Positions 1,202 to 49,165 of a stretch of DNA of 64,000 nucleotides are shown in pieces. The DNA lies in assembly GCA_964416425.1 (NCBI GenBank), contig CAYQEC010000001.1, positions 149,696 to 213,695 on the forward strand, given 5' to 3'. The stretch's first letter is position 1; the number at the start of each line of letters is the position of its first letter. The notes beneath the pieces are model-generated. The model made no database searches, was not told where the DNA came from, and saw only the letters and a program-made list of their open reading frames with translations. This stretch comes from an uncultured Acidimicrobiaceae bacterium. Its GTDB lineage: Bacteria > Actinomycetota > Acidimicrobiia > Spongiisociales > UBA5794. The position numbers and the translations under genes are program-made.

Positions 1202-3286
1202 CTATCCCACCAGAGGCGTGCGATTCGGCCCGGCGAGGTCGACGCCCTCGAGGCCGTGATCGAGGATCGGGCGCAGCCGGGACGCCGGCATCGGCCGGCT
1301 GAAGTAGAACCCCTGGAACAGCCCACAGCCCAGGTTGGCGAAGAGGTCGACCTGCTCCCGGGTCTCGACGCCTTCGGCGATGACGTCGAGCCCGAGGCTG
1401 TGACCGAGGCCGATGATGGCCTCGGAGAGGCTGGCAGTGCCGGGATTGGCCACCGACTCGTCGACGAAGGACCGGTCGATCTTGATGGTGTCGAGCGGGA
1501 AGTCCTTCAGCTCGCTGAGCGACGAGTACCCGGAGCCGAAGTTGTCGATGGCGACCCGGACGCCCCGTTCCTGGAGCCGCTCCAAGGTGCGGCGGGCGAG
1601 GGCGTAGTCCTCCAGCAGCGTCTCTTCCTTGAATTCGAGGCCGAGCCGGCGGGCCTCGATGCCGGTACGGGAGAGGGCCCGGTCGACGATCTCGACCAGG
1701 TTGCCCCGCTGCAGCTGACGGGCCGAGATGTTCACCGACACCGACAGCTCCCCCAGTCCGGCCTTGTGCCATTCGGAGAGCTGGCGGCAGCCTTCGAACA
1801 GGGCCCATTCGCCGAGCGGGAGGATGAGATCGGTCTCCTCGGCCACCGACACGAAGCGCTCGGGGAGGACGAGGCCATGCTCGGGGTGGTCCCACCGGGC
1901 CAGGGCCTCGACCCCTTGCACCGCCCCGGTGGCGATGTCGACCCACGGCTGGTACACGAGGGTGAGCCCCTCCTCGACCTCGAGGGCGCGGCGCAGGCCG
2001 TCGATGAGGCGGAGCCGCTCCGAGGTCTGCTGCCGCAGCTCGGGGGTGAAGTACTGGTAGGTGTTCATGCCGGCGGCCTTGGCGCTGTACATGGCGATGT
2101 CGGCGTCCCGCAGCAGCGCCTCGGCGTCGTCGCCGTCGATCGGGTAGAGGGCGATGCCGATGGAGGCGGTGACCCGCAGCTCCCGGTCCCGCACCCGGTA
2201 CGGCTCCTCGAGGGTGCGCAGGATCTTGGTGGCCACCTGCCCGGCATCCTCGACCCGCTGGCTCCCTTCGAGGATGACGGTGAACTCGTCGCCGCCGATG
2301 CGGGCGACGCTGTCGGTGGCGCGGACCGAGGAGACGAGGCGGCGGGCCACCTGTTGCAGCAGCTCGTCGCCGATGTTGTGGCCGTAGCGGTCGTTGATGG
2401 TCTTGAATTCGTCGAGGTCGACGAACATCAGCGCCACCAGGCGGCCGTCGCGGTGGGAACGGATGATGGCGTTGTGGAGGCGATCGCCGAACAACACGCG
2501 ATTGATGAGCCCGGTGAGAGGATCGAAGCGCGCCACGTAGTTGAGCTTGCGGCGATCGGCCTCCCGTGTCGCCTCCCACTCCCGGTCCCGGATGCGCCAC
2601 TGACGGCGGATCGCCCGGGCGGCGGGTCGGAACAGGAAGAGCCCCTCGGCGAGGAGCATCACGATCGTCAGCGCCAGCAGTCCGAACACGAAGTTGCGCA
2701 GCATGGCGACCTGCCTCTCGGCGTCGGCGCCGAGCCGGGAGACGATGGCCCCCATGCCGGCGGCGTAACGATTGGATGCGGTCTCCACCTGCACGGCGTC
2801 GCCGACCTCGATCGGGTCGCCGGCGTCGTGGGTTCCCAGCATCATCTCACCGACCTCGACGAGACGCTGGTAGTCGGGGAACGCCGCGGCGCGGAGTCCT
2901 TCCAGGTCGCCGTTGGCGGTGCCCGCCACGCCGTCCTCGGGAAGGAACGGCTCCTGGTTGACGACGAGCTGCTCCAGGGCGTGTGACAGGTCGGCGACGA
3001 CGGTGTCTGCCGCACCTCCGGAGGCGGAAGCGAGCTCCCGGGCCGTGTCGGCGACCCGGCGGCTGAGCAGGATCTGCCCGGCGGCCTCGCTCAACTCGGA
3101 GGCGTCCCGCCGTTGGTGCCCGAGGGCGTAGGAGACGAGGAACGTGCCGACGATGGCGACGAGGGCGAGCAGGCTGAGGCCGATGACGTAACGCCCGGCC
3201 GGCCGGGGCGGCAGAGTGCCGGCAGGGGAAGTGGCCCCTGAAGGGACGGCCGCTTCAGGCACACCGGGCGTGTGCTCACCATCCAT
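1202..3286 (-). CDS. Membrane-anchored GGDEF-EAL protein with PilJ/NarX-like extracytoplasmic sensor
   Basis: Two TM segments flanking a helical sensor; DPLTGLINR, RATD I-site, GGDEF, EAL, DTIKIDRSFV, AEGVE motifs. Confidence 0.9.
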   Translation of the reverse strand: MDGEHTPGVPEAAVPSGATSPAGTLPPRPAGRYVIGLSLLALVAIVGTFLVSYALGHQRRDASELSEAAGQILLSRRVADTARELASASGGAADTVVADLSHALEQLVVNQEPFLPEDGVAGTANGDLEGLRAAAFPDYQRLVEVGEMMLGTHDAGDPIEVGDAVQVETASNRYAAGMGAIVSRLGADAERQVAMLRNFVFGLLALTIVMLLAEGLFLFRPAARAIRRQWRIRDREWEATREADRRKLNYVARFDPLTGLINRVLFGDRLHNAIIRSHRDGRLVALMFVDLDEFKTINDRYGHNIGDELLQQVARRLVSSVRATDSVARIGGDEFTVILEGSQRVEDAGQVATKILRTLEEPYRVRDRELRVTASIGIALYPIDGDDAEALLRDADIAMYSAKAAGMNTYQYFTPELRQQTSERLRLIDGLRRALEVEEGLTLVYQPWVDIATGAVQGVEALARWDHPEHGLVLPERFVSVAEETDLILPLGEWALFEGCRQLSEWHKAGLGELSVSVNISARQLQRGNLVEIVDRALSRTGIEARRLGLEFKEETLLEDYALARRTLERLQERGVRVAIDNFGSGYSSLSELKDFPLDTIKIDRSFVDESVANPGTASLSEAIIGLGHSLGLDVIAEGVETREQVDLFANLGCGLFQGFYFSRPMPASRLRPILDHGLEGVDLAGPNRTPLVG

Positions 3287-5918: not shown

Positions 5919-6025
5919 GACGCCCGCAGCGTACCTGCCTCGACCGGGGCCTCGTCTGGAGTGAGGACCCCCCTCTCGGGTAGTCTCGTGGTCCGACAAC
6001 CATCGACCCCACGGAGGATCCGGCT

Positions 6026-8092
6026 GTGAAGGTGTACCCGCCCGAGAAGATTCGCAACGTCGCGCTCGTCGGTCACAGCGGATCCGGGAAGACGACCCTC
6101 GCCGAGGCCCTCCTCTTCCGTGCCGGCGCCATCGGCCGGCTCGGCCGGGTCGAGGACGGCACCACCGTCACCGATTTCGACCCGGAGGAACACAAACGCG
6201 GCATCTCGCTGTCGCTGGCCACCGCTCCCTTCGAGTGGAAGGGCCACAAGATCAACCTGATCGACACGCCGGGCTATGCCGATTTTGTCGGTGACGTCGA
6301 CGCCGCCCTCCGGGTTGCCGACCTCGCCGTGTTCGTGATCAGCGCCGCCGACGGCGTCGAGGTGGGGGCCGAGACGGCGTGGCGGGAGGCCGAGAAGCTC
6401 GGGCTGCCCCGCATGATCTTCATCAACAAGCTCGACAAGGAACAGGCGTCGTTCGACCGCACCCTGCAGCAGCTCCGGGACCGCTTCGGCGCCGGGATCG
6501 CCCCGATCGAGCTGCCGATCGGGCAACAGGCCGACTTCCACGGCGTCGCCGACCTGTTCCGGGACAAGGCGTACGTCTACGACAGCGGCACGGCGGTGGA
6601 GGCCGAGATCCCGGCCGAGATGGAGAGCCGGGAGCACGAGGTCCGCGACAACCTGGTCGAGGGCATCGTGGTGGCGGACGACGAGCAGCTGGAGCGTTAC
6701 CTGGAGGGGGAGATCCCGTCGGTCCAGGAGTTGGAGAAGACGATGGCCCTCGGGGTCGCCGCCGGCACGGTGTTCCCGGTGGTGTGCGGCTCGGCGACCG
6801 GGCCCATCGCCGTCGACCGGCTCGCCGACTTCATCGTCGAGATCGGGCCGTCGCCGGCGTCCCGCCCCAAGGTCGAGGTCAAAGCAGGCAACGAGACCGT
6901 GGAGATCGAGGGAAGCCCGTCGGGCGATCCGCTGGCGCTGGTGTTCAAGACGATCACGGATCCCTATGTGGGCCAGATCTCCTACTTCCGGGTGTTGTCG
7001 GGGACGATCAAGGCCGAGGACGTGCTCCACAACACCCGTAGCGGGGCCGACGAGCGCTTCGCCAAGGTGGCGGTGATGATCGGCAAGGAGTCGGAGCTGG
7101 TGCCATCGCTGCCCGCCGGGGACCTGGGGGTCGTCGCCAAGCTCAACGAGACCGCCACCGGCGACACCCTCGCCCCCAAGCACAAGCCGGTCACGGTGCG
7201 CCCCATCGCCCACCCCGAGCCGGTGCTCGCCATCGCCATCCATGCCCGCACCCAGGCCGACGACGACAAGCTCGCCAACTCGCTGCGGCGCCTTCAGGAG
7301 GAGGACCCGTCAATCCGGGTCGAGCGCAACGACGAGACGAAGCAGACGCTGCTGCGGGGTATGGGGGAGACCCACCTCACCATCACCATCGAGCGCCTCG
7401 CCCGCAAGTTCGGGGTCGAGGTCGACACCGAGCCGGCCAGGGTCGCCTACCGGGAGACGATCACCGGCTCCGCCGACGCCGAGGGCAAGTACAAGAAGCA
7501 GAGCGGCGGCCGGGGCCAGTTCGGGGTGGCCTTCCTCCGGGTCGAGCCGACCCAGCGTGGCGAAGGTTTCGAGTTCGTCGACGAGATCAAGGGCGGCTCG
7601 ATCCCCCGCCAGTTCATCCCGGCGGTCGAGCACGGCATCCGGGAGACCATGGCCGACGGCGGCGTCCACGGCTTCCCGGTCGTCGACGTGCGGGTCCGCT
7701 GCTATGACGGCAAGTACCACTCGGTCGACTCCTCCGAGATGAGCTTCAAGATGGCGGGGCGGCTCGGGTTCAAGGCCGCCATGGCCAAGGCCGGGCCGAT
7801 CATCCTGGAGCCGATCTCGAAGATCTCGGTGACGGTGCCGTCGAACTACCAGGGTGACGTGATGGGTGATCTGTCGTCACGGCGGGGCCAGGTGCAGGGC
7901 ACCGAGGCCGCCGCCGGAGGCCGGCAGCGCATCACGGCGCTGGTGCCGTCCTCGGAGATCCTCAGCTACGCCATCGACCTGCGGTCCCTCACCCAGGGTT
8001 GGGGCAGCTTCACCGCCGAGCACGATCACTACCAGGAGCTGCCGTCGCACCTGGTCGATCGGGCCCTCGCCTCGCTCGAGGACGACGACTGA
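6026..8092 (+). CDS. Elongation factor G-like protein (EF-G2 paralog)
   Basis: GHSGSGKTT, DTPGYADF, NKLD G-motifs; KKQSGGRGQFG and YHSVDSSEMSF domain IV motifs; KIRNVALVGH N-terminus typical of EF-G2; not in an rpsL-rpsG-tuf context. Confidence 0.9.
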   Translation: MKVYPPEKIRNVALVGHSGSGKTTLAEALLFRAGAIGRLGRVEDGTTVTDFDPEEHKRGISLSLATAPFEWKGHKINLIDTPGYADFVGDVDAALRVADLAVFVISAADGVEVGAETAWREAEKLGLPRMIFINKLDKEQASFDRTLQQLRDRFGAGIAPIELPIGQQADFHGVADLFRDKAYVYDSGTAVEAEIPAEMESREHEVRDNLVEGIVVADDEQLERYLEGEIPSVQELEKTMALGVAAGTVFPVVCGSATGPIAVDRLADFIVEIGPSPASRPKVEVKAGNETVEIEGSPSGDPLALVFKTITDPYVGQISYFRVLSGTIKAEDVLHNTRSGADERFAKVAVMIGKESELVPSLPAGDLGVVAKLNETATGDTLAPKHKPVTVRPIAHPEPVLAIAIHARTQADDDKLANSLRRLQEEDPSIRVERNDETKQTLLRGMGETHLTITIERLARKFGVEVDTEPARVAYRETITGSADAEGKYKKQSGGRGQFGVAFLRVEPTQRGEGFEFVDEIKGGSIPRQFIPAVEHGIRETMADGGVHGFPVVDVRVRCYDGKYHSVDSSEMSFKMAGRLGFKAAMAKAGPIILEPISKISVTVPSNYQGDVMGDLSSRRGQVQGTEAAAGGRQRITALVPSSEILSYAIDLRSLTQGWGSFTAEHDHYQELPSHLVDRALASLEDDD

Positions 8093-8097
8093 GCGGC

Positions 8098-8805
8098 GTG
8101 GCGGACCTGCCCGGCCCCGACGACGATCTGCTTGCCGAGCAGCTCGCCTACTACCGGGCCCGGGCTCCCGAGTACGACGAGTGGTGGGAGCGGCGGGGCC
8201 GCTTCGACCGGGGACCGGAGCTGAACGAGGCCTGGTACCGCGAAGTCGCCGAGCTGGAGGCGGCGATCGACGCCCTCGGGCCGTTCGGCGACACCCTGGA
8301 GCTGGCGTGCGGCACCGGGATCTGGACCCGGCGCCTCCGGCCCCAGGCCGCCACCCTCACCGCGGTCGATGCCAGCGAGGAGATGATCGGCCTCAACCGG
8401 GCCCGGCTCGGGGACGACTCGATCGAGTACCTCACCGCCAACCTGTTCGGCTGGATGCCGCCGCGGCGCTTCGACACGGTGTTCTTCTCGTTCTGGCTCT
8501 CCCACGTACCCCCGGAGCGGTTCGAGGCCTTCTGGGGACTGGTGGGCCGCGCCCTGGGCCCGGGTGGCCGAGCCGTCTTCGTCGACAACCAGTGGATCGA
8601 ATCGGCGACGTCCCTCGGGGGTCGTCTCGGTGACCGGGACTCCACCTCGGTGGAGCGTCAGCTCAACGACGGGCACTGGTACCGCATCGTCAAGGTCTTC
8701 CACGAGCCGGCGGAGTTGGCGCAGCGACTCGGCGGCCTCGGTTGGGAGGCCCGGATCACCGCGACCGCCCAGTACTTCATCTACGGCGAGGCGTCCCCGG
8801 GGTAG
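8098..8805 (+). CDS. Class I SAM-dependent methyltransferase
   Basis: YYRARAPEYDEWW N-terminus; LELACGTGIWT SAM motif; FFSFWLSHVP. GTG start at 8098 chosen. Confidence 0.85.
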   Translation: MADLPGPDDDLLAEQLAYYRARAPEYDEWWERRGRFDRGPELNEAWYREVAELEAAIDALGPFGDTLELACGTGIWTRRLRPQAATLTAVDASEEMIGLNRARLGDDSIEYLTANLFGWMPPRRFDTVFFSFWLSHVPPERFEAFWGLVGRALGPGGRAVFVDNQWIESATSLGGRLGDRDSTSVERQLNDGHWYRIVKVFHEPAELAQRLGGLGWEARITATAQYFIYGEASPG

Positions 8806-9278
8806 GAGTCCTCGGTCATCGTCATCGTGGAGACGACCCGGTCACCGGCCCGGGTGACGACCTTGACCGGCATCCCGGGACGGTCGTCGGCGAACCAGAA
8901 GGTACGGACGGTCTCGCCGTCGTCGACGGTGTAGCGGAGGCATCTCATGACGCCGAGCGGCGTCTCGATCGTCTCCCGTTCGATCCTGGTGCGCTCCACC
9001 GGGAACGAGGCGTGCGCCTGGAACTCCTCCCACCGGGTCCGCTCCGCCGTCGCCGGCTGCAGGGGCTCCCCGTCGAGAGAGAATCGCTGCCCCTCCTGTT
9101 CGGCGCCCTCCTCGTCACAGGAGAGGAAACGCACCACTCGCAGGGAGGCGGGCTCGTCCGCCGGCTCGACGAGGAGCCGCATCGTCCGGCCCGGCGGGCA
9201 GCCGTGGCGGATCTCGGCGGACGAGAACGGTGTCGGCGCATGGCCGGGGGCCATCAGATGAGGATCATCTCTGGTCAT
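8781..9278 (-). CDS. Conserved hypothetical protein
   Basis: Protein-like ORF (APTPFSSAEIR.GCP.GR ... TFWFA...PGMPV) co-oriented with the eno-ftsB-DUF501 run. Confidence 0.65.
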   Translation of the reverse strand: MTRDDPHLMAPGHAPTPFSSAEIRHGCPPGRTMRLLVEPADEPASLRVVRFLSCDEEGAEQEGQRFSLDGEPLQPATAERTRWEEFQAHASFPVERTRIERETIETPLGVMRCLRYTVDDGETVRTFWFADDRPGMPVKVVTRAGDRVVSTMTMTEDSYPGDASP

Positions 9279-9311
9279 GGATGTCCATTCTGCTCCAGCG
9301 CTGACCCGCCC

Positions 9312-9827
9312 TCAGTGTCTCGGTTCGCGCCACTCCGGGTTGAGGGCCCCGTCGATCACGCACGGCACGGTGCAGTCGAGCGGCTCGATCCGGGCGGCGG
9401 CGTGCTCCCCCACCGGGTTGTCGTTGCCGGCGGCGTGGTCGGCGTAGTGGGCGTGGAGGCACTTGACCCCTCGGGTGGCGCCTCCTACTCCCCCGGTGGG
9501 GCGCGGCAGCGGCGAATCCGCCGGGATGAGGGCGTCCCGCTCCGCCGCGTAGCGGGCGACCGCGGCGGCATGGCGCTCCGCCAGGTCGGGATCGACGGCG
9601 AGCCTGGCCTCCGCCTCCTTCACCCCGCCGGCGGCCTCCAGCCGGCCGACGCGGCGCACCGCCAATGGGCAGGTGAGCCAGTAACGGGTGGGGAAGGGAG
9701 TGCCGTCGTCGAGGTGGGGCGGGACCGCGGTCACCACCGGGAGGCCGAGGTGGCAGCGGGCGACGACGTCGATCGGCGAGCGAGGTTCCCGGCCCAGTTG
9801 GGCCGTCACCGTCTCTCGATCACTCAT
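9312..9827 (-). CDS. DUF501 domain protein
   Basis: QLGREPR, DGTPFPTRYWLTCP, GVKCLHAHYAD motifs; canonical position after eno-ftsB. Confidence 0.9.
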   Translation of the reverse strand: MSDRETVTAQLGREPRSPIDVVARCHLGLPVVTAVPPHLDDGTPFPTRYWLTCPLAVRRVGRLEAAGGVKEAEARLAVDPDLAERHAAAVARYAAERDALIPADSPLPRPTGGVGGATRGVKCLHAHYADHAAGNDNPVGEHAAARIEPLDCTVPCVIDGALNPEWREPRH

Positions 9828-10248
9828 CCGGTACGAGGTCGCGGCCGGTGAGGAAGTCCCACACCTTCTCCAGCGGGGACCGCTCGTCCTCGGGTGGCTG
9901 CCCCTGCTGGGGAACAACCGCCTCCGGCTCCGGCGCAGGCGGGTCGATGGTGTAGCCGGTCTCGCCGGGACGGACCAGCCCGTATTGCTCGCGGGCGATC
10001 CGCTCCAGGTCGGAGGCGGACTCCAGCGAGGCGACCTCTCCCTCGAGGCGGTCGTTCTCGGTGAGCAGCGCCTCCAGCTTGGCCTGGGTGTTCTCCACCC
10101 GTCGCTGCTGGGCGATCATCTGCCGGAACGGGAAGATGCCGGCGAGGGTGATGGCGAGGGCAACGAGCAGCAGGACCGCGACCACCGGCCCCCGCCGGCC
10201 TCTCGGCTGGCGGGGTGTGTCGCGGTCCTGCAACATCGTCTCGTCCAA
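9820..10248 (-). CDS. ftsB: Septum formation initiator FtsB/DivIC family protein
   Basis: Single TM, coiled coil, ERIAREQYGLVRPGE motif; downstream of eno. Confidence 0.85.
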   Translation of the reverse strand: MDETMLQDRDTPRQPRGRRGPVVAVLLLVALAITLAGIFPFRQMIAQQRRVENTQAKLEALLTENDRLEGEVASLESASDLERIAREQYGLVRPGETGYTIDPPAPEPEAVVPQQGQPPEDERSPLEKVWDFLTGRDLVPDE

Positions 10249-10251
10249 TGA

Positions 10252-11589
<1,338 letters not shown>

Positions 11590-11698
11590 TCAGCGTAGGG
11601 GCGGCGGGTGGAATCGTGATCTCGCCGGGGCCCGCGGCGGCCCTCCGGGCGCCTCAACCGCCTCGGTCCCGCCCGGCCCGGAGCCGCCTCCGGGCCGG

Positions 11699-11736
11699 GC
11701 AACACGACCGAAACACCCCGGTAACCCTGCCGAAAT
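11699..11736 (+). promoter_or_regulatory. Tandem GlnR boxes upstream of amt-glnK-glnD
   Basis: GCAAC-n6-GAAAC-n6-GTAAC-n6-GAAAT matches the actinobacterial GlnR pattern gTnAc-n6-GaAAc repeated at 11-bp period. Confidence 0.8.
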
Positions 11737-11795
11737 GAACCCGTGCCACATTGTCGGCCAACCGATCAACGCGGATACCCCGAGGAGGATCCCGC

Positions 11796-13345
<1,550 letters not shown>

Positions 13346-43594: not shown

Positions 43595-44260
43595 ATGGAC
43601 CTGCTGGTCGTCGAGGACGACGACGCGATCGCCGAACCTCTCGTCGACGGTCTCCGTCGCGAGGGGTTCGAGCCCCGGCGCGTCTCGACCGGCCGGGCCG
43701 CCCTCGAGACGGAGCCCGGCGACTTGGTGTTGCTCGACCTCGGGCTCCCCGACATCGACGGCAAGGACGTGTGCCGGGAGCTGCGGCAACGCTCCCAGGT
43801 GCCGATCATCGTCATCACCGCCCGGGGCGACGAGGTCGACCGGGTGGTGTTGCTCGAGCTCGGCGCCGACGACTACGTCGTCAAGCCGTTCGGATTCCGG
43901 GAGCTGGTGGCGCGCATCCGCGCCGTGCTGCGGCGCACCACCGGCAGCGCCGCCGAGGATCCTTCCGGGGCCGTCGAGCTCGCCGCCCTGGCGATCGACC
44001 GCCGGGCGCGGCGGGTCACGTTGGAGGGCCGGGAGCTGCAGCTCACCCCCAAGGAGTACGACCTGCTCGCCTTGCTCGCCTCCGAGCCGGGGGCGGTGTT
44101 CACCCGCGAGGAGATCATGAGCGAGGTGTGGGACGAGCACTGGTACGGCCCCACCAAGACCCTCGACGTCCACATGGCCTCGCTCCGCAAGAAACTGGGG
44201 GACCCCCGCTGGATCACCACGATCCGGGGCGTCGGGTTCCGCCTCGAGGAACCGGGATGA
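43595..44260 (+). CDS. OmpR-family response regulator
   Basis: LVVEDD, LLDLGLPDIDG, GADDYVVKPF, winged helix with TLDVHMASLRKKLG and TIRGVGFR. Confidence 0.95.
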   Translation: MDLLVVEDDDAIAEPLVDGLRREGFEPRRVSTGRAALETEPGDLVLLDLGLPDIDGKDVCRELRQRSQVPIIVITARGDEVDRVVLLELGADDYVVKPFGFRELVARIRAVLRRTTGSAAEDPSGAVELAALAIDRRARRVTLEGRELQLTPKEYDLLALLASEPGAVFTREEIMSEVWDEHWYGPTKTLDVHMASLRKKLGDPRWITTIRGVGFRLEEPG

Positions 44261-45642
44261 CACGGCGCCTCCTCGGCACCTACCTCACCATCACCGGGTT
44301 CGTCCTGGTCGTCCTCATCATCCCGCTCGGGCGAACCTTTGCCGCCAGGGAGGAGGACCGGCTCATCTCCGCCATCGAGCGGGACGCCACCGTGGTCGCC
44401 AGCATGTCGGAGGAGGCCCTCGAGGACGGGACGTCACTGGGCCTCGACGGGCTCCTGCAGCGCTACGCGATCGATCCGGGAGGCAGGATCGTCATTGTCG
44501 ACGCAAGGGGTATCAGCGTGGCGGACTCCGACAATCTCGGCGGACCACCCCGCGACTTCGCCACCAGACCCGAGTTCGTCCAAGCCCTCGCCGGAAGGGT
44601 CGACCGCGGCATCCGATCCTCCGAGACCCTCGGGAGGGACCTGATCTACGTGGCCGTCCCCACCGGATCGGGGGGCAGCATCGTGGGCGCGGTCCGCATC
44701 ACCTACCCGGCGACCACGCTGCAGGATTCGGTGCGCGACAACTGGCTGCGGCTGGGCGTGCTCTCGCTGGTGGTGCTGGCGGCGGTCACCCTCGTCGGGT
44801 TCGCCCTGGCGCGGAGCGTGACCCGGCCGGTGCGGGCCCTGGAGCGGACGGCGGCGAGCCTGTCGGCGGGTGACCTGTCGGCGAGGGTGACGGTCTCCGG
44901 ACCACCCGAGATCAAGGAGCTGGGCCGCACCTTCAACGAGACGGCCGACCGGCTCCAGGCCTTGATCGACTCCCAGCGTGGCTTCGTCGCCGATGCCTCC
45001 CATCAGCTCCGCACTCCGTTGACCGCGCTCCGCCTCCGCCTCGAGAACCTGCGGTACGCGGTGGACGCCGAGGATCTGTCGGCGGTGGAGGCGGCCCTCT
45101 CCGAGACCGGCCGCCTCACCCGGCTCGTCGACGGGTTGCTCGCCCTGGCCCGGGCCGAGGCTCAGCACGCCCCGGGGGAGGTGGTCGACCTCGCCACGAT
45201 CGCGGCGGGCCGCACCGAGGTGTGGGAGCCGCTCGCCTCCGACGGGGGTGTCACGATCGCCACCGAGCTGCCGGCGGCCGCCCCGGCCCGGATGGTGCCC
45301 GGCGCCACCGAGCAGATCCTCGACAACCTGATCTCCAACGCTCTCGACGCCACCCCGGAGGGGAAGCGGATCACGATTGCGGTCGTCCCCGCCGGGGACC
45401 TGTGGGAGCTCCACGTGTCGGACGAGGGCCCCGGGATGAGTGACGAGCAGCGGGCCGGCGCCTTCGACCGGTTCGCCTCGGGGAAGGCGGGAAGGGGAAC
45501 CGGGCTCGGTCTCAGCATCGTTCGCCAGCTCGCCCGTTCCGGCGGTGGGGACGCCCGCCTCCTGCCGTCCCCCAGCGGGGGCCTCGACGCCGTGGTGTCG
45601 CTCCCGGCGGCCACCGGCCCGGCACCGGCACCGGGAGACTGA
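44257..45642 (+). CDS. Sensor histidine kinase (Cache-like sensor, HAMP, HisKA, HATPase)
   Basis: Two TMs; ADASHQLRTPLT H-box, NLISNA, DEGPG, GTGLGLSI; ATGA overlap. Confidence 0.95.
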   Translation: MTRRLLGTYLTITGFVLVVLIIPLGRTFAAREEDRLISAIERDATVVASMSEEALEDGTSLGLDGLLQRYAIDPGGRIVIVDARGISVADSDNLGGPPRDFATRPEFVQALAGRVDRGIRSSETLGRDLIYVAVPTGSGGSIVGAVRITYPATTLQDSVRDNWLRLGVLSLVVLAAVTLVGFALARSVTRPVRALERTAASLSAGDLSARVTVSGPPEIKELGRTFNETADRLQALIDSQRGFVADASHQLRTPLTALRLRLENLRYAVDAEDLSAVEAALSETGRLTRLVDGLLALARAEAQHAPGEVVDLATIAAGRTEVWEPLASDGGVTIATELPAAAPARMVPGATEQILDNLISNALDATPEGKRITIAVVPAGDLWELHVSDEGPGMSDEQRAGAFDRFASGKAGRGTGLGLSIVRQLARSGGGDARLLPSPSGGLDAVVSLPAATGPAPAPGD

Positions 45643-45670
45643 GGGCGGGGCGGCACGACCCCGAACGCGG

Positions 45671-45699
45671 CGAGAACCCCTGCGGGGCAAGGGTTCTCG
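45671..45699 (-). terminator. Hairpin downstream of tRNA-Ala (convergent terminator candidate)
   Basis: CGAGAACCC...GGGTTCTCG 9-bp inverted repeat between the kinase stop and the tRNA 3' end; no clear U-tract. Confidence 0.5.
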
Positions 45700-45704
45700 T
45701 GGAG

Positions 45705-45778
45705 TGGAGGTGACGGGATTTGAACCCGTGACCCCTTCGTTGCGAACGAAGTGCTCTGCCGAACTGAGCTACACCCCC
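45705..45778 (-). tRNA. tRNA-Ala(CGC)
   Basis: GGGGGTG/CACCTCC acceptor stem with the G3:U70 Ala determinant, anticodon arm CTTCG-TTCGCAA-CGAAG, GGTTCAAATCC T-loop. Confidence 0.93.
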
Positions 45779-45800
45779 GGGAGCAGGGAAGTGTAGCCCG

Positions 45801-46430
45801 TCAGTCCTGCTGTTCGAGCCGGGCCTGCAGCCGTTCCTGCACGATGGTGGTGGTGAGATCGGCCCGGCTCCGCTCGATCAGGGCACGAGCCACGTCGGTG
45901 GTGCGGCGCAGCCCGGCGGTCATCCCATCGGGGTAGTCGAGCGAGGTGAGCAGATCATGGATCGTCTCCATCGCGTGGAACGTCTGCTCGGCCTCCGCCA
46001 GCTGCCCGGTGCGGAGCTGGTCGAGGAGGCGACGGCGCAGCTCCCCGACCGCCTCCCCGAGGCCCTTCAGGTAAGGCACGGCGTGCAGACCGAGCGCATC
46101 CGGCAGCGGCAGCGGCTCGGCGGCGAGCAAGGCGGCGGTCAGCTCCGCCTCGGCGAACTCCTTCACCGCGTCGTAGAAGAACCCGGCGTAGTAGATGTCG
46201 AGATGGCCCTGCAGCGGTTCCTCGGCCTCGGCGATCAGGGTGCGGGCCTCGACCAGCAGCTCCTCGGCGGTGGCCGGATCGTTGCGGTGCAGGGCCCGGA
46301 TGGCGTTGGCGGACTGGCGGATGATCTTGCGGCAGTTCTTCAGCGCCAGCTCGCGGGCCTCGTACTTGCCGTCGAGCTCCTCGCGCACGGCAGCTTCGAG
46401 TGCGTCGAGGTTGAGATGCGCCTCAGGCAT
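45801..46430 (-). CDS. Translin/TRAX (C3PO) family protein
   Basis: All-helical 209 aa; RELALK..R...R.S..AI...H, DAVKEFAEA, YLKGLGEAVGELRR, GLRRTTDVARALIERSRAD, matching archaeal Trax as recalled. Confidence 0.85.
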   Translation of the reverse strand: MPEAHLNLDALEAAVREELDGKYEARELALKNCRKIIRQSANAIRALHRNDPATAEELLVEARTLIAEAEEPLQGHLDIYYAGFFYDAVKEFAEAELTAALLAAEPLPLPDALGLHAVPYLKGLGEAVGELRRRLLDQLRTGQLAEAEQTFHAMETIHDLLTSLDYPDGMTAGLRRTTDVARALIERSRADLTTTIVQERLQARLEQQD

Positions 46431-46461
46431 CGTCCGGTCGCTCAGCCGGCGAACCGGCGGG

Positions 46462-46902
46462 TCAGCCGGCGACGACACGAACCGTGGGCTCCGGCTCGGG
46501 CACCGTCACCACTCGGTCGCGGTGCGCCCGCAGCGAGAGCACCCGGCCCATGCTGCTGTTCCGCTGCCCGGCGTTGAGGAGCAGGGACACGTACCCGCCG
46601 AGAGCGAGGTCGAACAGCAGCGTCGCGCCCAGCCAGACCATGCTGTCGCGCCAGATCGCCACGCCGAGGGTGGCGAGGGCGCCGAAGGCGAGGGAGTAGA
46701 GCACGCGGCGGCGCCGGTCCTGCACCTGGCGCCGCAACATCACGTCGCGGGCGCTGTTACCGGCGACGGAGGCCAGCAAGGCGGTGGAACGGGCGAAGCT
46801 CCGCGTGGAGTTGATGGGAGCCCGTTGACGGTTCTCGACAAACGAAGGCAGCAGGAATGCTGCCCAAATCCCCCCGATCAGCACAAAAGCGAGGATTTCC
46901 AT
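46462..46902 (-). CDS. SepX/GlpR-like membrane protein
   Basis: N-terminal TM with WAAFLLPS, RRRR followed by two TMs; syntenic with moeA-moaC-mog and tRNA-Ala as in other Actinobacteria. Confidence 0.6.
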   Translation of the reverse strand: MEILAFVLIGGIWAAFLLPSFVENRQRAPINSTRSFARSTALLASVAGNSARDVMLRRQVQDRRRRVLYSLAFGALATLGVAIWRDSMVWLGATLLFDLALGGYVSLLLNAGQRNSSMGRVLSLRAHRDRVVTVPEPEPTVRVVAG

Positions 46903-46975
46903 CTGTTCCCTTACTCAGTTCGCAACTGAGAGTAGGCGTCCAGGTTCCGCGGTCAAAGGACCGCCTCGCCGTCCC

Positions 46976-47464
46976 TCACGAGTGATCTGCATTGTGGTCT
47001 GATTGCGCCGCTATCACCAACTCGACGCCGTGCATGAGCGCCGGACCGATCACTGCCAGCGACTCCTCGACGCCACGGACCGAACCCGGGAGGTTGATGA
47101 TCAGCGTCCGGGACGCGATGCCGGCCACGCCGCGGGACAGCATGGCGAAGGGGTTCTCGGCGCAGGCGGCGGAGCGCATCGCCTCAGCGAGTCCCGGCGC
47201 CCGGCGCTGCACGACCAGGGTGGTGGCCTCCGGGGTGAGATCGCGGGGGGAGAATCCGGTGCCGCCGGTGGTGACGATCAGCGACACCTCGTCGATGAGC
47301 ATGCGGAGGGCGTCCCGCACCGACTCGACCCCGTCCGGCACCACGCGCTGCTCGCTCACCTGGAAGCCGATCTCCTCCAGCGCCGCGACCGCCGCCGGTC
47401 CCGACTCGTCTTCGGCCTCACCGCGCGTCACCCGGTCGCTCACCGTGATCACCGCAGCTTTCAT
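46976..47464 (-). CDS. mog: MogA/MoaB molybdopterin adenylyltransferase
   Basis: VITVSDR, TTGGTGFSPRDLTPEA, SRGVAG, INLPGS motifs. Confidence 0.92.
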   Translation of the reverse strand: MKAAVITVSDRVTRGEAEDESGPAAVAALEEIGFQVSEQRVVPDGVESVRDALRMLIDEVSLIVTTGGTGFSPRDLTPEATTLVVQRRAPGLAEAMRSAACAENPFAMLSRGVAGIASRTLIINLPGSVRGVEESLAVIGPALMHGVELVIAAQSDHNADHS

Positions 47465-47931
47465 CTCCGCCACCTCCCCGAGCGTCCACCGCTCTTCTCG
47501 AGCAATCGCACCGGCCCGATCTCGGCACCCCGATCCAGGCCTTTCACCATGTCGTAGAGCGTGACCGCTCCCAACGCCGCCGCCGTCATCGCCTCCATCT
47601 CGACACCCGTCCTCGCCTGGGTACGCGCCGTCACCTCGACCCGGGCGCCGGTGTCGATCGGTTCGATCGCCACCTCGACGGCGTCGAGGGGAATCGGATG
47701 GCACAACGGCACCAGCGACGACGTCTGCTTCGCCCCCATGATGGCCGCAACCCGGGCCACCGCCACGGCATCTCCCTTGGGGAGGTCGCCGGCGAAGAGC
47801 CGGTCCCGCACCGCCGGGGTGAGAGTGATGACCGCCTCGGCGACCGCCACCCGCACCGTCGGCTCCTTGCCGCCGACGTCGACCATCCGGGCCCGGCCCT
47901 GCTCGTCGAGGTGGGTCAGGTCGTCATCCAC
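47461..47931 (-). CDS. moaC: Cyclic pyranopterin monophosphate synthase
   Basis: LTHLDEQGRARMVDV, LVPLCHPI, TGVEMEAMT, YDMVKG motifs. Confidence 0.95.
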   Translation of the reverse strand: MDDDLTHLDEQGRARMVDVGGKEPTVRVAVAEAVITLTPAVRDRLFAGDLPKGDAVAVARVAAIMGAKQTSSLVPLCHPIPLDAVEVAIEPIDTGARVEVTARTQARTGVEMEAMTAAALGAVTLYDMVKGLDRGAEIGPVRLLEKSGGRSGRWRR

Positions 47932-49165
47932 CGAGTGCCTCCTCCCTGGTGCGGGTCTCGGGGCTTCCGAATAGCTCGAGGTCGACCGGGGCACCCGCCG
48001 CCAGCGCCGCCACGCCGACCGGGACCACCGCGAACGCGTCGGCGGCCGCCATGGCGGACTGGACGTTGGAGCCTTGGGCGCCGCTGAGCCGGGCGTGGAG
48101 GCGCCCGTCGCCGCCGTCGGCGGTGACCGCCACCCGCAGGAACACCGTCTTCTCGGGATCGGTGCGGACGTCGCCGTCGAGGATGCCGGGGACCCTGGGC
48201 CGGAAGAGGCGCGCCGCCCCCATCATCGCCAGCAGCGCCGGGCGCAGGAACTGCTCGAAGGACACCACCACCGACACCGGGTTCCCGGGAAGCCCGAAGA
48301 ACGGGGTGCCCCCCAGGTTCCCGAAGGCGAACGGCTTGGCGGGCTGCATCGCCACCCGCCAGAAGTCCACCGTCCCGAGCAGGGCGAGCTCGCTCTTGAC
48401 CAGGTCGTATTCCCCCATCGAGACCCCGCCGCTGGTGACCACGGCGTCGCTGTTGGCGGCGGCGTGGCCCAGCACCCGGTTGAGGACGGTGGCCTCGTCG
48501 GGGACGATGCCGTGGTCGATCACGACGGCCCCCAGCTCCTCGATGAGGCCCCGCAGCAGGAACCGGTTCGAGTCCCGGATCTTGCCGGGAGCGAGATCGG
48601 CCGTCTCGGCCGGCACCAGCTCATCGCCGGTGGAGAGGATGGCGACCCGGGGCCGCCGCCGCACCTGCGGCGTCGCGACGCCGAATGAGGCGCAGATGCC
48701 GAGACGGGCCGGGGTGAGCCGCACCCCGGCCGGGAAGACCTCGAACCCGGCGGTCACGTCCCCGCCGGCGGGACGCACCGCAGTCCCGGCGGGTATCGCC
48801 ACCAGGATCCGGACCTCGCCGTCGCCCGGCTCGGTGTCCTCGACCTTCACCACCGCGTCGGCTCCGTCCGGGAGCGGGGCGCCCGTCATGATCTTGATGG
48901 CGGTTCCCCCCGTGACCGGTTGCGACGGCACCCGGCCGGCGGGCACGTCCTCCAGCACCGGGAGCGTCACCGGGGCGGCCGCCACGTCGGCGGCCCGTAC
49001 CGCGTAGCCGTCCATCGCCGAGTTCGGGAACGGCGGGAGGTCGTGGGGCGCCACCAGCGGCACCGCCAGCGCCAAGCCGCGGGCTTCCCGCAGCGGCATC
49101 GCCACCACCGGCAGCGGCTTCATCGCGTCGAGCACGGCCCGCTGAGCGTCGGCCAGCGGCTTCAT
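47924..49165 (-). CDS. moeA: Molybdopterin molybdotransferase
   Basis: PPFPNSAMDGYAVR, IMTGAPLP, STGDEL, SGGVSMGEYD, GLPGNPVS motifs. Confidence 0.95.
   Translation of the reverse strand: MKPLADAQRAVLDAMKPLPVVAMPLREARGLALAVPLVAPHDLPPFPNSAMDGYAVRAADVAAAPVTLPVLEDVPAGRVPSQPVTGGTAIKIMTGAPLPDGADAVVKVEDTEPGDGEVRILVAIPAGTAVRPAGGDVTAGFEVFPAGVRLTPARLGICASFGVATPQVRRRPRVAILSTGDELVPAETADLAPGKIRDSNRFLLRGLIEELGAVVIDHGIVPDEATVLNRVLGHAAANSDAVVTSGGVSMGEYDLVKSELALLGTVDFWRVAMQPAKPFAFGNLGGTPFFGLPGNPVSVVVSFEQFLRPALLAMMGAARLFRPRVPGILDGDVRTDPEKTVFLRVAVTADGGDGRLHARLSGAQGSNVQSAMAAADAFAVVPVGVAALAAGAPVDLELFGSPETRTREEALGG

Follow-up and report, generated by a model that had tools for sequence, protein, structure and literature searches.

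The window analysed here is a 64-kb stretch (64,000 nucleotides (nt); positions 149,696–213,695 of contig CAYQEC010000001.1, assembly GCA_964416425.1) with a GC content of 70% from an uncultured Acidimicrobiaceae bacterium, and all coordinates below are those of this whole stretch. It carries an open reading frame (ORF) of 209 amino acids (aa), hereafter the Trax-like gene, whose product is, by sequence, profile and predicted fold, a Trax-type member of the translin superfamily. The gene lies at the end of a moeA-moaC-mog-sepX/glpR-like run and is followed by a tRNA-Ala(CGC) gene; the Trax-like gene, the tRNA gene and the upstream string are all on the minus strand. The two features at the centre of the analysis are the following.

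45801–46430, minus strand: Trax-like (prokaryotic C3PO-type) translin-superfamily gene, 209 aa, from the ORF, homology, predicted fold and residue conservation
45704–45778, minus strand: tRNA-Ala(CGC) gene, from ARAGORN, Rfam (RF00005, 69.6 bits) and the sequence itself

The Trax-like ORF extends from an ATG at 46430 to a TGA at 45803–45801. An alternative GTG start at 46478 would add 16 residues to give a 225-aa product and overlap the preceding gene, and close homologues of 209 aa cover the ATG version over 100% of its length. The best homologue matches with an expect value (E) of 1e-111, which argues that the ORF did not arise by chance; the GC content at third codon positions (GC3) is 0.90 for the GTG-start version (45801–46478). 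KEFAEA occupies residues 90–95 of the protein and YLKGLGEAVGELRR residues 120–133. Between the stop codon and the tRNA gene lie exactly 22 nt, CGGGCTACACTTCCCTGCTCCC, a spacer that holds the hexamer TACACT, and the tRNA itself has the G3:U70 alanine identity pair on reading of the sequence and no encoded CCA. A preliminary description of the locus had noted the 209-aa ORF, its motifs, the 22-nt spacer, the common strand, which it did not name as the minus strand, and the position at the end of the moeA-moaC-mog-sepX run, and every one of these observations was reproduced.

Identity, fold and active-site residues of the Trax-like protein

Searches of PDB sequences with phmmer matched the Trax-like protein to AfTrax of Archaeoglobus fulgidus (3ZC1) with an E of 4e-16 over residues 16–195 at ~30% identity, and to NEQ131/NeC3PO of Nanoarchaeum equitans with an E of 4e-6 (3.8e-6). 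A profile of 65 relatives matched AfTrax at 2.5e-35, NeTrax at 1.2e-14, Drosophila TRAX at 1e-6 and human TRAX at 1.6e-4, and did not match translin proper. The Pfam Translin family (PF01997) was matched by 48 of the 65 aligned relatives at E ≤ 0.01 (best 3.8e-7), and several relatives carry precomputed PF01997 matches. Among NCBIfam models, the best were PRK14562 sub-models (‘haloacid dehalogenase superfamily protein’), with an E of 9e-67. The AlphaFold2 single-chain model, with a predicted local distance difference test score (pLDDT) of 94.6 and a predicted template modelling score (pTM) of 0.87, consists of helices only. The best 50 Foldseek matches of this model in the PDB were all C3PO, TRAX or translin chains, with AfC3PO (template modelling (TM) scores 0.80/0.88, root-mean-square deviation 2.2 Å) followed by NeC3PO (TM ~0.77/0.86), eukaryotic TRAX and then translin. 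The sequence matches to AfTrax and the predicted fold closest to AfC3PO thus uphold the Trax-type identity that had been proposed in the preliminary description. No second translin-superfamily gene was present among the annotated genes of the window, and the PADLOC defence-system and PHROGs phage-protein libraries gave no matches and hence no link to defence or phage.

The four cation-coordinating residues are Glu82, Glu85, Asp117 and Glu121 in NeC3PO and E123, E126, D193 and E197 in human TRAX (PMC5100593), and E91, E94, E126 and E130 of the Trax-like protein align with these four positions. Conservation was assessed in an alignment of 106 sequences, comprising 103 full-length representatives at 50% identity together with the window protein, AfTrax and NeTrax. 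The residue E91 occurs in 104 of these sequences, as does E94, and E130 in 105; position 126 is acidic in all 106 (79 Glu and 27 Asp). In a second alignment (A2) of 65 sequences from Acidimicrobiia and Chloroflexi-type proteins, all four acidic residues are invariant. The glutamate at position 126 is not a sign of decay, because Glu is the majority state among the relatives. The retention of the acidic catalytic residues, which had been assumed at the outset, therefore holds across the aligned sequences, each being present in at least 104 of the 106 sequences or always acidic.

Beyond the acidic residues, R133, R175/R176 and D179 align with Arg124, Arg163/Arg164 and Asp167 of NeC3PO and are invariant or nearly so, and R132/R133 are conserved among the relatives. 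NeC3PO forms the inter-subunit salt bridges Glu121–Arg163 and Arg124–Asp167, the same Arg/Asp set contacts the substrate, and mutation of Arg163 or Arg164 reduces cleavage (PMC5100593). The conservation of R133, R175/R176 and D179 thus lends indirect support to an active site that depends on oligomerization.

The family proved to be large. At 90% identity, the protein database holds 3,338 clusters, and identity to the query is at least 73% throughout the best 120. An exhaustive search of 50%-identity representatives returned 1,513 at E ≤ 1e-3 and 853 at E ≤ 1e-10. Family members are abundant in Acidimicrobiia and Chloroflexota metagenomes, and the view that bacterial members are sparse is wrong for such data. 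The next-nearest group in the profile search has 42–55% identity, and its few named members are Chloroflexi, Dehalococcoidia and Dehalococcoidales metagenome-assembled genomes (MAGs); among the more remote representatives are archaea (Methanomethylicota) and a different Actinomycetota lineage. In a neighbour-joining tree, the Acidimicrobiia sequences form one clade beside the Chloroflexi group, a phyletic placement for which the evidence is a rough tree without bootstraps and the small number of MAGs that carry names. Prokaryotic members have been reported from five archaeal phyla and, among bacteria, from Chloroflexi only, with a single translin-superfamily gene in each prokaryote (PMC5100593), and no discussion of the Actinomycetota (Acidimicrobiia) clade seems to have appeared in the literature searched. 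The JGI product name for the relatives is ‘translin’, whereas NCBI names them ‘haloacid dehalogenase [Acidimicrobiia bacterium]’. These NCBI names and the absence of bacterial biochemistry from the literature searched agree with the earlier characterization of bacterial members as mis-annotated and uncharacterised.

Gene neighbourhood and tRNA adjacency across relatives

The following further features surround the Trax-like gene and the tRNA.

46462–46902, minus strand: SepX/GlpR-like small membrane protein gene, 146 aa (NCBIfam SepX_GlpR, E 4e-5, far under the cutoff; synteny)
46976–47464, minus strand: mog, with a MoCF_biosynth domain (Pfam, 4e-31)
47461–47994, minus strand: moaC (Pfam MoaC, 8e-48)
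47924–49165, minus strand: moeA-family gene with MoeA_N, MoCF_biosynth and MoeA_C domains (Pfam)
45812–45817, minus strand: TCGAAC, candidate −35 element with a 16-nt spacer to the −10, weakly conserved (inferred; TCGAA-like motif in some loci)
45790–45795, minus strand: TACACT, likely −10 element of the tRNA promoter, 11 nt upstream of the mature 5′ end (comparative conservation)
45671–45699, minus strand: 13-bp GC-rich hairpin 3′ of the tRNA, before the convergent histidine-kinase gene (RNA fold −32.9 kcal/mol, z = −3.5)

The sepX/glpR-like gene ends 31 nt upstream of the Trax-like ATG, the moeA-family gene is possibly a Glp-type (FtsZ-binding) paralogue or else the ancestral enzyme beside a GlpR-like gene, and plsY is located beyond the moeA-moaC-mog-sepX/glpR-like genes. 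A scan of species-representative genomes yielded 48 loci (L001–L048), nearly all labelled Acidimicrobiia, Acidimicrobiaceae or Actinomycetota MAGs. In all 48, and in a relative of 54% identity (L138), the gene immediately preceding the Trax-like gene is sepX-like, at a distance of ~10–35 nt as judged from the ends of tblastn alignments. The moeA, moaC and mog genes were detected upstream in 43–46 of the 48 loci, and contig ends explain most of the misses. The sepX-like protein has a median identity of 46%, moeA, moaC and mog reach 65–66% and the Trax-like protein 74%. The Trax-like protein is thus the best kept of the cluster, which is unusual given that no bacterial role is known for it.

The 54%-identity relative L138, which lies on a 2.96-Mb contig, has the order plsY-NTP transferase-moeA-moaC-GlpR-Trax-like-tRNA-Ala(CGC), a string without mog in which the GlpR Pfam match of the sepX-like homologue is weak. 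The presence of the block in so distant a relative indicates that it is old within the lineage. At 6699–12639 of this locus, the tRNA-Ala(CGC) gene is followed by a phage-type integrase gene (Arm-DNA-bind_3, Phage_integrase) and two IS110-family transposase genes, and the position of the tRNA directly upstream of the integrase fits a role of the tRNA as an integration site.

A tRNA-Ala(CGC) gene lies downstream of the Trax-like gene on the same strand in 33 of the ~40 Acidimicrobiia loci that could be evaluated. The gap is 22–29 nt in eleven loci and at most 120 nt in 26, and the longer gaps of 165, 306, 392, 748, 841, 1063 and 1958 nt contain other ORFs. At least 4–6 Acidimicrobiia loci have no downstream tRNA; no tRNA was found within ~6 kb of the Trax-like gene in L009, L010, L011 and L013. 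The genes that follow the Trax-like gene in the last three of these loci are unrelated and encode a TetR regulator, a hybrid histidine kinase and an S9 peptidase, and the ORF layout of L009 is the same as that of L010. Outside the Acidimicrobiia, we examined a Chloroflexi-type set of 88 loci, consisting of eight loci and 80 more from a metagenome scan with alignment A3. In the eight loci no tRNA lies within 3.6 kb, and only L056 has any, all of them unrelated. An adjacent tRNA occurs in one of the 78 Chloroflexi-type loci with at least 300 nt downstream (tRNA-Pro, L114), and any tRNA within ~4–6 kb in two of the 88. In the second Actinomycetota lineage (L137, 44% identity), the Trax-like gene stands between a cyclase gene and a polysaccharide deacetylase gene with no tRNA nearby. 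Because all adjacent loci belong to one monophyletic clade that shares one synteny block, the tRNA adjacency counts as a single evolutionary event, and its disappearance outside the Acidimicrobiia clade indicates one inherited arrangement as opposed to a recurring association.

Comparison of the sequences upstream of the tRNA revealed a TAnnnT hexamer 9–14 nt before the mature 5′ end in 33 of 34 sequences, compared with 5% of shuffled ones, in the variants TACACT (19), TACAAT (7), TATCAT (3) and others. The distance of this hexamer to the tRNA holds whether the gap to the Trax-like gene is 22 or 1958 nt. The candidate −35 element TCGAAC falls in the C-terminal L-E-Q codons of the Trax-like ORF, an overlap also present in the closest relatives, and a CTCGAA/TCGAA-like motif recurs in several loci, including L015 with its 392-nt gap. 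A scan of 45550–47100 with the E. coli-type sigma-70 consensus called no promoter, so that the tRNA promoter is argued here from comparative conservation. A conserved −10 element at a fixed distance, despite the variable gap, indicates that the tRNA is transcribed autonomously, and the earlier caveat that it has its own promoter has thereby been strengthened considerably. A promoter that overlaps the end of the coding sequence would imply a tRNA leader of only ~5 nt. No terminator was found between the Trax-like ORF and the tRNA, so that read-through from a sepX-Trax-like transcript into the tRNA is possible; on such read-through, RNase P would define the 3′ end of the mRNA.

On the other side of the tRNA, a two-component system converges on it, with the response-regulator start at 43595 (plus strand) and the histidine-kinase gene at 44257–45642. 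The hairpin at 45671–45699 is likely a (bidirectional) terminator without a U-tract. ARAGORN also called a 98-nt tRNA-Ser(CGA) at 43610–43707 on the minus strand; this candidate is probably a false positive, given that it falls within the coding region of the response regulator and that Rfam gave no match at its gathering score. Two copies of the 9-mer GCCGGCTGA, separated by 20 nt, are present at 46431–46470 on the minus strand, a segment comprising the sepX stop and the 31-nt sepX/Trax-like intergenic region, and the duplication may be due to chance in a genome of 70% GC. The stretch 45650–46950, with the Trax-like gene and the tRNA, was matched in salt-marsh metagenome runs.

The Chloroflexi-type relatives have a different context, in which rnhB (RNase HII), yraN (UPF0102), two Zn_ribbon_8 (FmdB-like) genes and the Trax-like gene, followed by a proton pyrophosphatase (H+-PPase) gene or uvrA, appear in varying combinations, joined in some loci by a PD-(D/E)XK nuclease gene after yraN and by thiE/thiD2 between the Zn_ribbon_8 pair and the Trax-like gene. 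This string was seen in L050, L051, L054, L058, L064, L067 and L072 and in many of L057–L136. The tandem Zn_ribbon_8 pair lies upstream in 43 of the 88 Chloroflexi-type loci and is directly adjacent in many. At 6001–8083 of L056, a 240-aa homologue overlaps by 14 nt a downstream gene of the CCA-adding/poly(A) polymerase family (PolyA_pol, PolyA_pol_RNAbd, HD), the only tRNA-maturation enzyme seen adjoining a family member. At 3221–5977 of L049, a gene of 918 aa with no Pfam match on record stands directly upstream of the Chloroflexi Trax-like gene; at these coordinates its translation is interrupted by an in-frame stop, which may be due to recoding, to an error in sequencing or to a problem with the coordinates, and homologous sequence is also present in L057 and L060.

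Probable function of the Trax-like protein and comparison with known C3PO systems

Taken as a whole, the analysis suggests that the Trax-like ORF probably encodes a homo-oligomeric, Mg-dependent C3PO-type housekeeping nuclease and not a dedicated tRNA enzyme. The protein would be the prokaryotic single-subunit counterpart of C3PO. Homology with the enzymes of A. fulgidus and N. equitans suggests that its dimers join to form a hollow homo-oligomer, which is probably an octamer. Two-metal Mg2+/Mn2+ sites formed by E91, E94, E126 and E130 would face the cavity, and cleavage of short single-stranded or duplex RNA fragments, possibly also of DNA, would take place inside the barrel, so that the enzyme would serve general housekeeping by scavenging or processing fragments of nucleic acid. 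Its gene is the last protein-coding gene of the moeA-moaC-mog-sepX/glpR-like string and is probably co-transcribed with sepX, from which it is separated by a 31-nt gap in which no terminator was found. The tRNA-Ala(CGC) gene is a syntenic neighbour with its own promoter, of which the −10 lies in the 22-nt spacer and the −35 would lie in the last codons of the ORF. We infer the oligomeric state, metal dependence, substrates and transcript structure of this system. A housekeeping role fits the strong purifying selection on the protein, the location of its genes at the ends of housekeeping strings, and the RNase HII, YraN, PD-(D/E)XK and UvrA neighbours of the sister clade.

Several observations weigh against this reading. 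The query scores 20.7 bits with the Pfam Translin model (E 4.5e-4), under the gathering score of 25.9, and falls under all NCBIfam equivalog cutoffs. The third metal ligand, Glu126, is Asp in AfTrax (D114) and NeTrax (D117), a difference that may affect metal site M2. Apart from PMC5100593, which cites Gupta et al. 2012, the literature search for bacterial or actinobacterial translin biochemistry yielded no source, and to name any specific physiological substrate would be a guess. The Trax-like gene was found in salt-marsh metagenome DNA runs and not in RNA runs. Finally, the persistent tRNA-Ala adjacency and the CCA-adding-enzyme neighbour in L056 leave room for a tRNA-related role.

Such a role, in which the nuclease acts on tRNA precursors, for example by clearing 5′ leaders, and in which the 22-nt spacing reflects function or co-transcription, is the best-surviving alternative, although we regard it as unlikely. 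Eukaryotic C3PO of fungi and mammals is linked to the removal of pre-tRNA 5′ leader fragments. The tRNA-Ala(CGC) gene recurs at short distance in most Acidimicrobiia loci and again in the 54%-identity relative L138, read-through transcripts would include the tRNA as no terminator intervenes, and one distant homologue (L056) overlaps a CCA-adding enzyme gene. Archaeal TRAX genes, moreover, are reported in an ancestral SepRS operon (PMC5424206). The comparative data nevertheless argue for a different origin of the adjacency. The adjacent loci represent one clade and one event, the distance between gene and tRNA spans 22 to 1958 nt owing to insertions of unrelated genes, at least 4–6 loci lack the tRNA, and the tRNA has its own conserved −10 element. 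Among Chloroflexi-type relatives an adjacent tRNA (tRNA-Pro) is found in one of 78 loci, and L137 has none. The possible tRNA-precursor link drawn in the preliminary description is consequently not supported by the survey of relatives, in which adjacency is confined to one Acidimicrobiia block.

The constant upstream neighbour raises a second possibility, namely that in Acidimicrobiia the nuclease has been recruited to the Glp/GlpR (MoeA-like/SepX) division module, for example to clear nucleic acid at the septum. The glp and glpR genes form a conserved actinobacterial divisome cluster, although glp of this kind is for the most part confined to the class Actinomycetes (PMC10522489), and the position directly downstream of the sepX/glpR-like gene is maintained in 48 of 48 loci and in L138. 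However, a gene order conserved in a single clade says little about functional coupling, and the relatives in Chloroflexota and in the other Actinomycetota lineage have no such neighbour. The sepX-like assignment is itself weak, and the sequence of the nuclease gives no hint of a membrane- or FtsZ-interaction module. Recruitment to division is therefore very unlikely. A functional tie to the neighbours in general, whether to tRNA-Ala(CGC) precursors and leader fragments or to the Glp/GlpR(SepX) division module, we likewise hold to be unlikely.

A catalytically inactive, translin-like nucleic-acid-binding scaffold would be compatible with the Asp-to-Glu difference from AfTrax D114 and NeTrax D117 at the third metal ligand and with a literature search that turned up no assay of any bacterial member. 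This reading is very unlikely, however, as the conservation of all four acidic positions across 106 sequences would be difficult to account for without catalysis. The substituted residue is the one found in 79 of these sequences, the profile matches TRAX and not translin, and translin proper does not have these acidic residues (PMC5100593). The last reading, a hydrolase of the haloacid dehalogenase (HAD) superfamily, has virtually no probability despite the PRK14562 sub-model matches, which lie under equivalog cutoffs, and the NCBI product names, and was rejected because the predicted structure is an all-alpha bundle and not a Rossmann-like alpha/beta fold, the Foldseek matches are exclusively C3PO, TRAX or translin chains, and no HAD Pfam family matches, which marks the name as a propagated misannotation.

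A C3PO-type housekeeping nuclease can be compared with four known systems. AfC3PO (PDB 3ZC0, 3ZC1) is likewise a single-gene system and has in common with the window protein the all-helical fold, with 30–31% identity by Foldseek, and the E-x-x-E ... acidic-x-x-x-E-L-R-R catalytic layout. The window protein differs from it in its bacterial (Acidimicrobiia) host, in Glu126 in place of Asp114 and in its glp/glpR-like and tRNA-Ala context, and its octameric state and activity are predicted. NeC3PO (PDB 5JR9, 5JRC, 5JRE; PMC5100593) has the same fold, four metal ligands and gate residues at ~21% identity, with a shorter α5–α6 linker. It has been measured to cleave single-stranded RNA, single-stranded DNA, double-stranded RNA and double-stranded DNA, whereas the activity of the window protein is predicted. 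The single translin-superfamily proteins of Chloroflexi (Gupta, Kale & Kumar 2012, J Mol Evol, as cited in PMC5100593 and PMC5424206) are the nearest sequence neighbours outside the Acidimicrobiia clade, at 42–55% identity. They have the same length and conserved residues as the window protein, including Glu at the third acidic site (alignment A3), and are also uncharacterised and named ‘haloacid dehalogenase’ or ‘translin’, while the window gene belongs to a different phylum and a different neighbourhood with an adjacent tRNA. In eukaryotic C3PO, a hetero-octamer of translin and TRAX, the TRAX subunit is homologous in fold and catalytic residues, and two-metal hydrolysis in a closed barrel is presumably common to both systems. 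In contrast to the eukaryotic complex, no separate translin subunit is evident and the host has no RNAi pathway, and the window protein has 209 aa as against ~290 aa in eukaryotic TRAX, with ~18% identity.

The Trax-like protein is thus an actinomycetotal addition to a known family that is structurally characterised, physiologically obscure and in part already labelled ‘translin’. The analysis reveals no new mechanism; it corrects the propagated ‘haloacid dehalogenase’ misannotation and takes away the unsupported, if tempting, assignment of a tRNA-processing role from gene proximity. If either neighbour tie were true, it would constitute the first physiological role for a bacterial C3PO. Prokaryotic C3PO-like nucleases have structures from two archaea and no known cellular role, and the large, well-conserved Acidimicrobiia clade, with its intact active site and fixed genomic address, provides a set of bacterial proteins for biochemistry.

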